Source: a virus (taxonomy: Duplodnaviria > Caudoviricetes). From it: a stretch of DNA of 64,000 nucleotides. Where the stretch lies: IMG/VR virus record IMGVR_UViG_2751185632_000005, positions 25,472-89,471 of that record. The stretch is one strand, 5' to 3'. A model generated the notes under the pieces. That model ran no database searches, was not told where the DNA came from, and worked only from the letters and a program-made list of their open reading frames with translations. Below are positions 14,752 through 35,271 of this stretch, one piece after another. Every line of letters begins with the position of its first letter. The first letter of the stretch is position 1. The position numbers were made by a program, and so were the translations under genes.

Positions 14752-15623
14752 ACGCTCCTACTCGTCCCGTCCTGCGGTGGCATGGTGGTAAGTGGCGCCT
14801 CGCCCCTTGGATCATCCAGTATTTTCCGGCGCATACGATCTATGTCGAGCCGTTCGGCGGCGCGGCAAGCGTTCTGCTGAGAAAGACGCCGACCGCTGCC
14901 GAGATCTACAACGACCTCGACGGCCGGCTGGTGAACCTGTTCCGCGTGCTGCGCGACGTGGACAAGGCGGCCGACCTGAAGCGCCGGGTGGAGCTGACGC
15001 TGTTCGCCCGCGCCGAATTCGATTGGGCCTACGGGATCCCGGCCGATGACGTCGACGACGCGCACCGGATGATCGTGCTGAGCTTCATGGGGCACGGGTC
15101 GGATAGCACGACGCGAACCTGCAGAACGGGTTTCCGGTCTCGACTGTCGGACAACCGGGCTCTGCCCTCGCAGGCCTGGTCGACGTGGCACCGATCGATC
15201 CCCGAATTCGCCGATCGTCTGCGGGGCGTGGTCATCGAGCAATGCCCGGCCGCCGTGCTGATCGAACGCTTCGCCCGGCCGGATACCCTGTTCTACGTCG
15301 ACCCGCCCTATCTGCCGGAAACAAGATCAGCCATCGCCAACGGCCGGGCGAAGACGCACGGCTATCGTCACGAACTGACGGCCGCCGACCATGAAGAGCT
15401 GCTGGCGCTGCTCGACCGCACGGAAGGAATGGTCGTGCTGTCGGGCTATCCGTCCGAGCTTTACGACGACATGCTGTCGGGTTGGACGCGGGTGGAAACC
15501 CGCGCCCTGGCGGATGGCGCCCGGCCTCGCACGGAAGTGCTTTGGCTCAACCCGGCGTGCTTGCGCGCCCTTGATGAGGATCGCGCTCAACTGGAAATCT
15601 TTGGCGGGACGGCGACACAATGA
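14748..15623 (+). CDS. Dam-like (D12 class) N6-adenine methyltransferase
   Basis: LRWHGGKW, YVEPFGGAASVL, EIYNDLD, FYVDPPY. Confidence 0.9.
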   Translation: MNAPTRPVLRWHGGKWRLAPWIIQYFPAHTIYVEPFGGAASVLLRKTPTAAEIYNDLDGRLVNLFRVLRDVDKAADLKRRVELTLFARAEFDWAYGIPADDVDDAHRMIVLSFMGHGSDSTTRTCRTGFRSRLSDNRALPSQAWSTWHRSIPEFADRLRGVVIEQCPAAVLIERFARPDTLFYVDPPYLPETRSAIANGRAKTHGYRHELTAADHEELLALLDRTEGMVVLSGYPSELYDDMLSGWTRVETRALADGARPRTEVLWLNPACLRALDEDRAQLEIFGGTATQ

Positions 15624-27852: not shown

Positions 27853-28758
27853 TCACGCAAGGAAATCGCCGATTTGGTCGAGGATGGCCTGCGCCTCGTT
27901 GGCAACGTCGCGGCGCTTGCCCTCGTCCTCGCGAAGGACGCTGGCGTCGTGCTCGCAAAGCACCTTCATCCGCTCCGCCAGTTCGGCGATGCGCGGGTCT
28001 CCGGTAATGTCGAGCGCCGGAAGAACGGCGAGCATGTCGCGCACGTTCTCGACCAGCGAGTCGCGGAAGATGCCTTCCGACCGCTCGCCCTTCTTGCTCG
28101 CCGGCTTGTAGGCGCCGAGCCGGTCGACCATCCGCTCTGCCAGTTCGGCGATGCGCTCGAAGATGTTGCGCACGGCAGCACGCGTCGCCTCGCCGACCTG
28201 CTGCTCAATGTCGGCGCGGATGCGCTCGGCCTGAGCGTCAGAGATGGCGACACGGAAGTCGTCGGAGGTCGGGACCGGGAGAACCTTGCAATCCATCGCG
28301 AACTTGGCGCGCAGCTCTTCCGCCTCGGGATAGTCAGCCGCCTTGAACATGCCGTTGAGGCGGGAGGCGGCAGCGGCCACATAGCCGGGGTACCTGGTGA
28401 TGAAGGAGTCGACGGCCGCGTCGAACTTGGCCGACTGGGATCGGAGCCAAGCCATGTGTGAGAGATAGGCGTCGGCAGCCATGATGCGACTACCGTCCTG
28501 CATCCACGGCAGCGTCCGCTTAAGGAATTCATTGCGGGTTTCGCTGACGATGCGCTCGATCTCCTCGAGCGCTTCCTTCGGCAGAAGCAGCTTGTTGTAG
28601 CGGCCGGCGTCCGAGGCGGCGCCGTGTTGGTCGTTCACCTCCTTGGTGACTTCGCGGTCGAGCCGCCGGCCGGACCACTGCGAGATGCGCAGCGAGACGA
28701 TCATCGCGCGGGTGGCGAGGGTAGAGGAGGCAGACTGGATCTGAGAAAAGGCGTTCAT
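27853..28758 (-). CDS. DUF3150-like protein
   Basis: IVSLRISQWSGRRLD...KLLLPK...TLPW...YP...LRAKF...FRDSLVEN. Confidence 0.7.
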   Translation of the reverse strand: MNAFSQIQSASSTLATRAMIVSLRISQWSGRRLDREVTKEVNDQHGAASDAGRYNKLLLPKEALEEIERIVSETRNEFLKRTLPWMQDGSRIMAADAYLSHMAWLRSQSAKFDAAVDSFITRYPGYVAAAASRLNGMFKAADYPEAEELRAKFAMDCKVLPVPTSDDFRVAISDAQAERIRADIEQQVGEATRAAVRNIFERIAELAERMVDRLGAYKPASKKGERSEGIFRDSLVENVRDMLAVLPALDITGDPRIAELAERMKVLCEHDASVLREDEGKRRDVANEAQAILDQIGDFLA

Positions 28759-32236: not shown

Positions 32237-32572
32237 TTACCGGCCCTCCGCTTTGGCGATGATGGCGCGAATGCTGACGATCGCCGCCGCTGCGAGACCG
32301 TGTTCCAGCGGGTTGTTGTTTGGCTCGCCAAATGCGGTGACGAGCACGCCTATCGCCAATTCGAGGACAGCCAGCATCTCCGGCGAAGCGGCGATCAGAT
32401 GAGTGTTGGCTTCGCATTCCCGCTCCGTGCGGCCGCAGACGATCGCGACCACGGTCCCGTCATCACCCCCAACGATGTTGCAGCGGTAGCCCCCGCCAAC
32501 AGGCACGATGTTGAGATGCTTCGTGGTGATCCGAGCCGGAAACCAGAGCGCGGGCGTATGTTGAGTGGTCAT
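32237..32572 (-). CDS. Conserved phage protein (MTQHTP…ANARLIAAAP family)
   Basis: MTTQHTPALW...EANTHLIAASPEML...RAIIAKAEGR. Confidence 0.75.
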   Translation of the reverse strand: MTTQHTPALWFPARITTKHLNIVPVGGGYRCNIVGGDDGTVVAIVCGRTERECEANTHLIAASPEMLAVLELAIGVLVTAFGEPNNNPLEHGLAAAAIVSIRAIIAKAEGR

Positions 32573-32575
32573 GGT

Positions 32576-32944
32576 TCATTCCTCCGGGCTGGCGGTGATG
32601 GAGAAGTCCCCGTAGAACTTGCCCTGCCACGGGAAACAGCCATCGACGGGCTCGATGCTGTGCTCCACCCACGTCAGGCCGGTGCTGACGTCGTAGTCGC
32701 CGGTGGCGTTGCAATAGCCAGCGCTGACCCAGCTCTGGTAGACGTCGGGAAAGGCAGCCTTGAACGCCTCCCTCTCCATGGCAAACTTGATGTCGCCCAT
32801 GTAGGTGATCTGCACGTAGCGGAATGGGCCGATCACGGGGCCGCGATAGCCCCAGCCGTCCATGTCCTCGGTGGCGGTATCTCGGCCGTGGAACAGGCTG
32901 ATGTAGACGGCGCCCGTCTCGGGGCGGCTCATGGGAAGCGACAT
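32576..32944 (-). CDS. Hypothetical protein
   Basis: Start-associated motif and RBS; LFHGR...GWGYRGPVIGP. Confidence 0.7.
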   Translation of the reverse strand: MSLPMSRPETGAVYISLFHGRDTATEDMDGWGYRGPVIGPFRYVQITYMGDIKFAMEREAFKAAFPDVYQSWVSAGYCNATGDYDVSTGLTWVEHSIEPVDGCFPWQGKFYGDFSITASPEE

Positions 32945-33053
32945 AGGCGGTCTCCTTGAGTGCATGATTGCGGGGGAGCCCGGCCACCGGGAGGGTGGCG
33001 GCCGGGCTGGTGGCGATGGCACGGGTACGCAAAGAACAGTCGCCATCGCCGAG

Positions 33054-33314
33054 TTAGCGTCTCGGGGAACCGTAGGTCTCTCGGAGGTACCTGGCGGGGT
33101 TGATCCAGCGATCGACGGGGGGAATGTCCTCGTGTTCAGCGAGGGCCTCTACCCAATCCTTGGCGCGCTGGACGGAGATTTCCGCGCCGGCGATGTTTCC
33201 GAAAGACCATATGAACAGGCCGCGAGGGTCGGGCGTGTCGCGCACCGCGGCGTCCTTGCGCCCGGAAAGGCCAATCCATTTGCGGTTGATGCGCGACCAC
33301 ATGTGCGGTGTCAT
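33054..33314 (-). CDS. Hypothetical protein
   Basis: TGATG coupling to the upstream gene. Confidence 0.55.
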   Translation of the reverse strand: MTPHMWSRINRKWIGLSGRKDAAVRDTPDPRGLFIWSFGNIAGAEISVQRAKDWVEALAEHEDIPPVDRWINPARYLRETYGSPRR

Positions 33315-33667
33315 CACCGCGCGAATTCATCACGCATGCCGGCGAGCAGCGCCGGGCCGTAGCAGGACTCGAGGTTGCCGTCGGTGGGGGCGTTCTGGGC
33401 ACGCCAGCATTCCGCCGTGATGCCTTTCGGGACAGGGATGCAGGCCGTGAAGCCGCCGTAGGTGTTGGCGAGGCGAGATGCCTGGATGCAAGCGCGTTCG
33501 GGCATGCCGGTCGCAATGATCGCGGCGGCGTTGTCCATCGATAGCTTGGCAACCTCGAAGTACTCGTCCTCGTAGATGGTGGCGAGGGTGAATGTCTCGG
33601 CGCGGACCGGCGCCGTGGCGGCGAGCGCGAGAAGGGCGGCAGAAGCCGCAAGCGCAGAAAGGCGCAT
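33314..33667 (-). CDS. Secreted Cys-containing hypothetical protein
   Basis: Signal peptide MRLSALAASAALLALAATAPVRA; 4 Cys. Confidence 0.7.
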   Translation of the reverse strand: MRLSALAASAALLALAATAPVRAETFTLATIYEDEYFEVAKLSMDNAAAIIATGMPERACIQASRLANTYGGFTACIPVPKGITAECWRAQNAPTDGNLESCYGPALLAGMRDEFAR

Positions 33668-33717
33668 GGATGGTCTCCGTGAGTGCATGATTGCAGGTGG
33701 ATTCGCCGTGAGGCTTC

Positions 33718-33746
33718 TTGACTCCAAGCCTATTCGGCGTGACGAT
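33718..33746 (+). promoter_or_regulatory. Putative sigma70 promoter for the mini-array
   Basis: TTGACT-N17-GACGAT, ending 13 nt before repeat 1. Confidence 0.5.
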
Positions 33747-33759
33747 TGCCTTGGCGTCG

Positions 33760-33849
33760 GCCTCCCCCGCCAACGCGGGGATGGCCCTTGCTAGCGTCCT
33801 TATCGAACGCGAGCATATTGGGTTTCCCCGCCAACGCGGGGTTCCAAGG
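33760..33849 (+). CRISPR. Type I-E-like CRISPR mini-array (2 repeats, 1 spacer), no cas genes
   Basis: GCCTC-CCCCGC-CAAC-GCGGGG-ATGGCCCT, then a 32-nt spacer, then GGTTT-CCCCGC-CAAC-GCGGGG-TTCCAAGG; exact 61-bp period. Confidence 0.6.
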
Positions 33850-33879
33850 GACTGTCGGAGCAGTAACTCCGGGCCGGCG

Positions 33880-34059
33880 TCATCTCCCCACTTTATGGTC
33901 CGGGTCGTTGACCATCTCGATCCGATAATGGTCGCCGTTGTAGCCGACCCAGCACATTTCGACAGGGCGCTGGAACTGCACGGGGAAAAGGCGCCGGAAA
34001 ACGCCCCACAGGGATGACGGGGCTTCTTGTCCGGTTGTCTCGTTGACAATGCGGGCCAT
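33880..34059 (-). CDS. Hypothetical protein
   Basis: AAAGGA RBS. Confidence 0.55.
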   Translation of the reverse strand: MARIVNETTGQEAPSSLWGVFRRLFPVQFQRPVEMCWVGYNGDHYRIEMVNDPDHKVGR

Positions 34060-34134
34060 GGTTTTTCCTTTCTTGTTGCTGTCGAGCATTGGCGCTCGGG
34101 GTCGCCGGCCTGTTACGGTCGGCGGGCCGGGGCG

Positions 34135-34329
34135 TCAGAACGTTCCGGCTTCGTAGGCGCCCGGAGTCTTGCTGATCAATTCGCGCCAGCCGTAGCCATC
34201 GCGCACGTACCAGCCACCGAGACGCCACCGAGGCTTTCTCCAGCGCAGGCGCTTATCCGGCATCTCGACCAGCACTTTCATGTCGCGATCCAAGGCGGGG
34301 CTAAACGGGTGTTCGTGCCTCTCCATCAT
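34135..34329 (-). CDS. Hypothetical protein
   Basis: AAGGAG RBS before MMERHEH. Confidence 0.5.
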   Translation of the reverse strand: MMERHEHPFSPALDRDMKVLVEMPDKRLRWRKPRWRLGGWYVRDGYGWRELISKTPGAYEAGTF

Positions 34330-34366
34330 CTTCTCCTTAGCGGCGCGTCGGACGGCTTGACGCGGG

Positions 34367-34636
34367 TTACAGGCTAGCTGCCTCGTAGATTGGCGGACAA
34401 CCGAACGGATCGGCGTGGAAAGCGTCGCGGTCGTAGGCGCGAACGGAAACGACTTCACTGTGACCGGGCGCGATTTCTTCGGCGGCGATGCGCGCGGCTC
34501 GGGCCTCGGCGATGACCTCGTCGAGGGTATTGCCGTGCAGGATCGAGGACGTGATCAGGCGTCCGTCTGGCATCCGGGGTTCATTCCGCTTCGGGCGGAC
34601 ATTGATAGCGGTGCGGATCTCAAGGCGGATGGTCAT
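34367..34636 (-). CDS. Hypothetical protein
   Basis: Coupled to the upstream gene. Confidence 0.55.
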   Translation of the reverse strand: MTIRLEIRTAINVRPKRNEPRMPDGRLITSSILHGNTLDEVIAEARAARIAAEEIAPGHSEVVSVRAYDRDAFHADPFGCPPIYEAASL

Positions 34637-34641
34637 GACCG

Positions 34642-34878
34642 TCAGGCCTCGAGATAGAGGACGCGATACCGACCGTCGTTGCCGGGGTAGCACTCGACGG
34701 CGCGCGGATCGGATAGCGCGGGCGGCCCGATCTCGATCGAGCGAGAGGCAAGAGCGCTGTCGACGGCCGACCACGGGTCGGGATAGCCTTGGGCTGCGAA
34801 GTGACGCAGCGCCGCGCGCTGGCTGACGTAATGGTGCGTTCTGACGACATGGGAGCGAGCCCGTGCAATGGCGGACAT
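34642..34878 (-). CDS. Hypothetical protein
   Basis: Start-associated motif and RBS. Confidence 0.6.
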   Translation of the reverse strand: MSAIARARSHVVRTHHYVSQRAALRHFAAQGYPDPWSAVDSALASRSIEIGPPALSDPRAVECYPGNDGRYRVLYLEA

Positions 34879-34965
34879 GGTGGTTTCCTCTTGGTGCATG
34901 GATGCGGGGTCGGGTTGATTGCCCGTATAGCCGCCACCGGCGGGCGGAGGCGGCTAGGCTGGAAA

Positions 34966-35271
34966 TCACACTCTTTGGTGCCGTCCGTTGCGCGACACGA
35001 AGCCGTAGGCACGGACTTCGGCACCAAGAACATCCTGTGCAGTGGGGGAGTTGAGCGTGTCGAGAATGGCGCACTCGCCGGTGGCGTGGGGGTTGACGGG
35101 CCATTTTATGGCGACACCATCCGTCCGGCCGAGGTCGCGTCTGAGCACACCGTCATCATCCGGCATGTGCAGGCGATAGTGCGACACGGTGCCATCCGCG
35201 CCGCGGGAGACTTCCCAAAGGAAAATGTTGGCGCCGATCTCGTCGACCGACTGGGCGAGGGTGATCGACAT
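34966..35271 (-). CDS. Hypothetical protein
   Basis: GGAG RBS. Confidence 0.6.
   Translation of the reverse strand: MSITLAQSVDEIGANIFLWEVSRGADGTVSHYRLHMPDDDGVLRRDLGRTDGVAIKWPVNPHATGECAILDTLNSPTAQDVLGAEVRAYGFVSRNGRHQRV

Follow-up and report, generated by a model that had tools for sequence, protein, structure and literature searches.

An 89,471-bp lambda-like prophage carries, on a 383-bp accessory cassette, a genuine cas-less type I-E repeat-spacer-repeat mini-array together with a small ORF. Positions given here are those of the window, the 64-kb stretch of this provirus that was analysed. The element is almost certainly CRISPR in origin, and its most likely role, with a probability of about 0.6, is that of a single-guide unit for the Cascade of the host. 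The unit would be transcribed from the + strand, perhaps from the CTTGAC/GACGAT sequence just upstream, and host Cas6e would then cleave at the 3' base of both hairpins. This would free one 61-nt crRNA, composed of AUGGCCCU, a 32-nt guide and GGUUUCCCCGCCAACGCGGGG, which could be loaded into host Cascade. The canonical 32-nt length of the guide favours a real guide against a competing mobile element, as in superinfection exclusion or inter-virus conflict. Occupation of Cascade at the expense of the host crRNAs may be a side benefit.

The 16-mer CCCCGCCAACGCGGGG occurs twice on the + strand, at 33765-33780 and 33826-33841, with a start-to-start distance of 61 bp, and an exact search finds these two copies and no others in both the 64-kb window and the entire provirus record. 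Both lie in a gap (33668-33879) that is bounded by the minus-strand ORFs 33317-33667 (117 aa) and 33883-34059 (59 aa), so that the array, which reads on the + strand, is antisense to its neighbours. Each repeat has a 6-bp G+C stem and a 4-nt loop (CCCCGC-N4-GCGGGG), and the 16-nt cores of the two are identical despite diverged flanks. In 100 first-order Markov simulations, the expected number of exact 16-mer repeats within 200 nt was 0.02 per window, and two matches with two mismatches allowed were obtained in only 4 of 100 shuffles. A chance origin of the pair is excluded. The first-pass annotation of this DNA had reported the two 16-mers 61 bp apart, the 29-32-29 parse and the antisense orientation, all of which are borne out by reading of the sequence and by exact search (Table 1). 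A possible extra degenerate repeat upstream, at 33699-33727, was dismissed, with about 9 of 29 positions matching by eye. The window contains one other exact repeat of at least 16 nt within 200 nt, an 18-nt pair at 27977-27994 and 28139-28156; its members are 162 nt apart, a multiple of three, and may represent an internal protein repeat or a paralogous segment.

Table 1. Features of the mini-array, its cassette and the adjoining border (window coordinates)
Feature	Position	Strand	Description
Left border	33668-33697	-	Conserved leader of the downstream 117-aa gene, including its ribosome-binding stretch; homology to L003 and L028 resumes
Accessory cassette	33698-34080		383 bp; putative promoter, mini-array and ORF59
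Putative promoter	33718-33746	+	TTGACT (33718-33723), 17 nt, GACGAT (33741-33746); ends 13 nt before repeat 1
Repeat 1	33760-33788	+	GCCTC + CCCCGCCAACGCGGGG + ATGGCCCT; full 29-nt type I-E repeat
Predicted mature crRNA	33781-33841	+	61 nt: 8-nt 5' handle, 32-nt guide, 21-nt 3' hairpin handle; ends placed by the established Cas6e cleavage position
Spacer	33789-33820	+	32 nt, 50% GC; length follows from the 61-nt period
Repeat 2	33821-33849	+	GGTTT + CCCCGCCAACGCGGGG + TTCCAAGG; head and hairpin kept, 3' tail degenerate
ORF59	33880-34059 (stop codon included)	-	59 aa; small protein on the cassette

Type I-E repeats are 28-29 nt long and consist of a CCCCGC-N4-GCGGGG stem-loop with an 8-nt 3' tail, which becomes the 5' handle of the crRNA; the corresponding cas set, cse1-cse2-cas7-cas5-cas6e with cas3 and cas1-cas2, adjoins the array. 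A scan of one genome per species, covering 185,579 species and requiring two exact cores 40-50 nt apart, returned 13 genome stretches with the exact core pair, from Planctomycetota, Micrococcales, Streptacidiphilus, Streptomyces, SAR202, Gallionella, Thermomicrobiales, Myceligenerans and Nostocoides. Nine of these stretches are arrays with 4 to 63 core copies. The modal period is 61 in all 13, and all 13 show one core orientation, the same as in the window, with a 5-nt head, the core and then (A/G)T(G/C/A)NNCC. This uniform layout identifies the orientation of the window unit as + and its core as the standard type I-E hairpin. Repeat 1 fits the reference family across all 29 nt (compare the Thermomicrobiales repeat, GCCTC-core-ATCGACCG); its tail is of the 8-nt AT(G/A)NNCC(G) type and also fits the 53 viral stretches with an ATGGCCC tail that are described below. 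In repeat 2 the head and hairpin fit the family, but the tail does not. The 61-nt start-to-start distance equals the modal period of all the reference arrays. No alphaproteobacterial array with exactly the window core was present among the 185,579 species genomes, and an Rfam scan of 32500-35000, at E up to 10, returned no CRISPR-DR and no other relevant family. In exact core, orientation, period and tail type the unit matches genuine I-E arrays, in agreement with the type I-E-like, CRISPR-derived nature first proposed for it; its description as cas-less is also correct, there being no match to Cas6e (PF08798) or Cas7e (PF09344) in the 89.5-kb provirus.

The provirus is located on NCBI contig LUYP01000036.1 of GCA_001602765.1. 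It encodes a gpA-type large terminase, a lambda-family portal, a capsid gene and DnaB, and is of lambda-like type, while the host flank encodes ClpA and ClpS. The host ClpA shares 76-79% identity with those of Shinella, Methylobacterium and Sinorhizobium (Rhizobiales), 73% with that of Paracoccus, 71% with that of Sphingomonas and about 59% with those of Gammaproteobacteria. By this protein the host appears to be an alphaproteobacterium whose nearest named relatives are Rhizobiales. The closest compared genomes by ClpA are G576 (84%) and G376 (83%); none of the conclusions draws on the unpublished genome G385. Cse1 (PF09481) was found above the cut-off in 18 of 401 sampled genomes (4.5%) in the order of G376, indicating that a minority of genomes in the host's order have type I-E. 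An array of period 61 is present near 14 of the 18 fetched Cse1 loci, and most arrays of the order take the form GTGTT-CCCCGC-N4-GCGGGG-ATGAACCG.

Of the I-E-bearing genomes, G576 stands nearest to the host by ClpA, and its array served as the reference for the window repeats. The G576 array has the form GGTTC-CCCCGC-ACGC-GCGGGG-ATGGCCC(G/C/T), and includes repeats ending exactly ATGGCCCT and one starting GGTTT. In a mature type I-E crRNA, the 5' handle is formed by the last 8 nt of the upstream repeat and the 3' hairpin handle by the first 21 nt of the downstream repeat, Cas6e cutting at the 3' base of the repeat stem. The parts of the window repeats that would enter such a crRNA are identical to existing G576 variants: the tail of repeat 1, ATGGCCCT, which would become the 5' handle, at 8 of 8 positions, and the head of repeat 2, GGTTT, which would belong to the 3' handle, at 5 of 5. 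Of the parts that would be left out, the head of repeat 1, GCCTC, shares 3 of 5 positions with the G576 consensus, whereas the tail of repeat 2, TTCCAAGG, shares 2 of 8 with the consensus ATGGCCCG; this tail does not fit the type, but it would not enter the single crRNA. Conserved handle parts combined with drifted outer ends would be the expected trace of selection for one guide. The first-pass annotation had placed the conservation on the crRNA-forming parts and the drift in the outer ends, and this is upheld against G576 as an independent reference.

The window unit is also like the chromosomal I-E array of G576 (locus L060) in its stem, its 4-nt loop, its ATGGCCC(G/C/T) tail, its GGTT(C/T) head and its 61-nt period. 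It differs in that the loop is CAAC, where G576 has ACGC, and in having two repeats only, no leader and no adjoining cas genes, and in lying inside a prophage. L060 itself (G576:C22:51001-71000) is Cascade-only within 20 kb, with cse1-cse2-cas7-cas5-cas6e and no cas3, cas1 or cas2 beside them. Its array, at about 14877-15450, comes directly after cas6e and comprises nine repeats, which degenerate; an IS (rve) transposase lies upstream. The sole Cas3 and Cas1 matches in G576 are found together on a different contig, C3.

The mini-array had also been described as promoter-driven, which the promoter scan does not support. The TTGACT-N17-GACGAT sequence is present, and its -35-like CTTGAC, at 33717-33722, is good; the -10, GACGAT, is poor. 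It matches TATAAT at only 3 of 6 positions, for which reason a promoter scan of 33300-34300 returned no sigma-70-like site. A terminator scan found none in the gap and none after the array on the + strand, the only terminator-like site lying outside the gap. In both hairpins the pairing extends into head and tail (GGCC/GGCC in repeat 1 and UUGGG/UCCAA in repeat 2), and extended pairing of the same type is seen in genuine repeats, for example GGUU/GGCC in G576.

Viral mini-arrays that exploit host Cas proteins in inter-virus conflict have been described previously (Medvedeva et al. 2019, PMC6858448; reviewed in PMC11656645). The repeats of the published examples are identical to those of the host, and their spacers mostly hit related viruses (PMC6858448, PMC11656645). 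The window unit resembles them in having one spacer and two repeats, in its location in a viral genome without cas genes and in having a repeat of the type found in the host lineage, and an expected reliance on host Cas proteins is common to both (PMC6858448). It differs in that no target was found, in that the outer repeat halves are diverged, and in the host, which is alphaproteobacterial rather than a Sulfolobales archaeon.

The first-pass annotation had called for the spacer to be searched for targets, and these searches gave nothing better than chance, whether in phages, plasmids, IMG/VR, JGI metagenomes or cas loci. By blastn, the spacer matched phages and plasmids at chance level (best E 0.9-9), and the IMG/VR and JGI metagenomes were covered by pattern scans in which every sixth base was variable. 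No protospacer is present in the provirus itself, the related provirus G002, L028-L030 or the host flank. Against the 18 type I-E cas loci of the host's order the best match was 18 of 27 scored positions, shuffled spacers giving a median of 18 and a maximum of 21. When 597 real spacers from arrays of the host's order were compared with the phage family of the window, none matched better than 25 of 32 positions. A match between the spacer end and the empty-site junction (CGAGCAT) was set aside as too short to count. Since the databases are incomplete, a missing target is weak evidence.

The lack of a full target for the spacer is one of the points in favour of an RNA anti-CRISPR, a rather unlikely alternative that takes two forms: a crRNA that, as decoy or competitor, ties up Cas6e and Cascade, or a guide of the Cracr/crlRNA kind that silences host immunity, a partial match to a cas or toxin promoter directing Cascade. 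Both have precedents. Solitary repeat units, termed Racr, are RNA anti-CRISPRs, RacrIE1 and RacrIE2 being those of type I-E (Camara-Wilpert et al. 2023, PMC10651486), and Racr and non-targeting crRNAs lower interference by competing for Cas proteins (PMC10651486). Prophage-borne type I-E arrays that silence casA, termed Cracr, have been tested in Salmonella (Liu et al., bioRxiv 10.1101/2024.10.29.618823). The position of the unit in an accessory block next to an orphan small ORF, and the many solitary I-E units with an ATGGCCC tail in IMG/VR, are likewise consistent with such a role. Like Racr, the window unit is a repeat mimic that has no cas genes, lies between genes of a prophage and is closely preceded by a candidate promoter, and it could compete for Cas6e and Cas7. 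However, Racr is a single repeat, whereas the window unit has two, at the canonical 61-nt period and with a 32-nt spacer; from this arrangement a normal-looking crRNA is predicted.

The likeness to Cracr lies in a prophage-borne, I-E repeat-like array with degenerate repeats and predicted maturation by host Cas (10.1101/2024.10.29.618823). The pseudo-spacers of Cracr and of the host CreR/crlRNA mini-arrays (10.1101/2023.03.03.530964) partly match cas or toxin promoters and can be shorter than the window spacer, that of processed Salmonella CracrIE1 being 24 nt (10.1101/2024.10.29.618823). A partial match of the Cracr type is absent for the window spacer in the 18 I-E loci of the host's order, the scores being no better than those of shuffles, and this weighs somewhat against such a role.

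The array had been assigned to the accessory region of the phage, and it does lie in a variable accessory part of the prophage. The window aligns with L028, a Logan metagenome contig, over 32969-33697 and again over 34081-34138 (58 nt, 100% identity), and the L028 coordinates of the two blocks adjoin (1775/1776). As the alignment resumes at the adjacent base, the cassette represents a clean 383-bp insertion in the window. Provirus G002 (IMG/VR 2788500332_000006) is collinear with the window provirus, at 80-93% identity over most of its length; unrelated DNA replaces window 33698-34364, and no I-E-like hairpin occurs anywhere in G002. Metagenome contigs join 33667 to 34082, and contigs at the empty site carry a variant of the 33668-33697 leader. 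Four biofilm metagenome runs show both forms, the empty site at a depth of 34-43 and the filled form as short contigs that are identical to the window over 33804-34000 and have a depth of about 2. The same element, defined by the core pair and a TTCC tail, was not found in the JGI metagenomes. The mini-array element is known from one genome, and the two related phages, G002 and L028, are without it.

The site of the cassette is an accessory hot spot (window 33698-34364, G002 33145-34077, L028 1775/1776), with three relatives in three states: ORF59 with the mini-array, empty, and about 0.9 kb of unrelated small ORFs. The G002-type insert of about 0.9 kb includes a CxxC zinc-ribbon-like protein of 109 aa. 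Exchange at this hot spot is bordered by the conserved leader that immediately precedes the 117-aa gene, whose product (33317-33667, minus) has a signal-peptide-like N-terminus.

Comparable units are found in other viruses. The exact core pair occurs in three further IMG/VR contigs, L004, L005 and L006. L004 has at least five repeats at period 61 with a differing tail (AAAAG), the exact core being present in the first two, while the units of L005 and L006 comprise two to three repeats, and none of the ORFs around them belongs to a recognised cas family; the neighbours in L006 include a D5-type primase, an HTH gene, ArdA and a YqaJ recombinase. The pattern CCCCGC-N4-GCGGGG-ATGGCCC is present in 53 viral stretches in IMG/VR, where a few are expected by our own estimate from base composition. 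These stretches form three groups, namely solitary units, period-61 repeat-spacer-repeat units and arrays with a period of about 49 nt. Architecture like that of the window, without nearby cas genes, is seen in the unrelated viral contigs L005, L006, L064, L076, L078, L088, L098, L105 and L111, and this recurrence makes the window unit a member of a recurrent class. A degenerate second-repeat tail is also a feature of the period-61 units L064, L076, L105 and L111. In L105 and L111 at least one repeat has the exact core of the window; the first repeat ends ATGGCCCA and is followed by a 33-nt spacer, a second repeat with the tail ACGCAAAG and then a terminator.

The terminator after the degenerate second repeat of L105 and L111 is of the intrinsic type. 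The units in L105 (about 8159, minus) and L111 (about 3560, minus) are homologous to one another, the loop of the first repeat being inverted (CAAC vs GTTG) with the stem kept. As relatives of the window phage the two contigs were dismissed, tblastx giving noise only. The high-GC viral contigs L066, L067, L068, L070, L079, L082, L090 and L104 contain runs of I-E-like hairpins at a period of about 49-50 nt; the loop differs from unit to unit, and these runs may be multiplexed Racr or Cracr-type arrays.

It is improbable that the element is a decaying relic, that is, the trailer end of a bacterial I-E array (its last repeat, last spacer and degenerate terminal repeat) gained by illegitimate recombination and functionless in the phage. 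Such an origin could account for the divergence of the repeat 2 tail and the repeat 1 head, and the terminal repeats of real arrays degenerate likewise, as at the end of the G576 array. The presence of the element in one genome only, its absence from close relatives and the failure to find either a target or a clear promoter are also compatible with decay. However, both 16-nt cores are still identical, what has been retained is exactly the crRNA-forming parts, and the extended head-tail pairing is kept in both repeats, as in genuine repeats of the type. Unrelated viral contigs repeatedly show this layout, again with a second tail that is dispensable, and reading of the sequence reveals no further spacer-repeat unit upstream of repeat 1.

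A single guide for host Cascade remains the preferred reading, and a more elaborate form of it, to which only a small probability is given, is that the unit is purpose-built. The outer repeat halves would have been rewritten with the head-tail pairing kept, and the unit might serve a Cascade-only I-E variant like that of G576, in binding-only silencing of a host or rival gene and not in the destruction of DNA. Rewritten outer halves, if real, would leave the two repeats unlike one another, and unlike a full host repeat, everywhere but in the core. Cas6e could still process such repeats, but recombination between them and their recognition by the adaptation machinery would be avoided.

A caveat raised in the first-pass annotation, that the spacer itself can fold, is justified, although its stability (-9.0 kcal/mol) only reaches about the 5% tail among real spacers of matched GC content. 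On the minus strand the 215-nt gap has a better fold than 200 of 200 shuffles (z = -4.1), as against z = -2.0 on the + strand; any I-E array, however, folds on both strands, its stems being palindromic. A non-CRISPR function is very improbable; three hairpins would here act in the operon transcript of the minus strand, for example by stabilising it or by marking a processing site between cistrons. The stronger minus-strand fold and the folding of the spacer would suit such a function, but neither hairpin is followed by a U-run on the minus strand, the terminator scan found nothing in the gap, and a generic hairpin role would explain neither the 61-nt period and identical core nor the matches to I-E tails and heads.

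Viral mini-arrays, Racr and Cracr RNAs have already been published, so the window unit represents a new example and not a new mechanism; each of the roles proposed earlier for it (a guide against a competitor, promoter repression, a decoy) corresponds to a published mechanism. With it, the viruses known to draw on the CRISPR machinery of their hosts gain a clear example from an alphaproteobacterial (Rhizobiales-like) prophage. For experimental use it offers a 383-bp presence/absence cassette with base-exact borders and natural relatives, repeats that diverge as expected if a single crRNA matters, and, as a candidate partner (for example an anti-CRISPR), the linked orphan 59-aa gene.

Neither ORF59 nor the 117-aa protein has a Pfam or PHROG match, and in IMG/VR homologues of the 59-aa and 117-aa proteins are found only in L003, which is without the repeat element. 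Among 1.84 billion representatives ORF59 has one homologue, also of 59 aa, with 56% identity over 36 residues; it is set in a run of small genes with no repeat unit beside it. By sequence comparison, ORF59 is a real but nearly orphan gene, and the absence of a neighbouring repeat unit from the homologue shows that ORF59 and the array need not occur together. P0007, a protein of 1254 aa, contains five occurrences of a motif to which residues 27-51 of ORF59 can be matched (E = 1.5e-10), and the recurrence of this motif suggests that ORF59 may be a free-standing copy of a repeat module.
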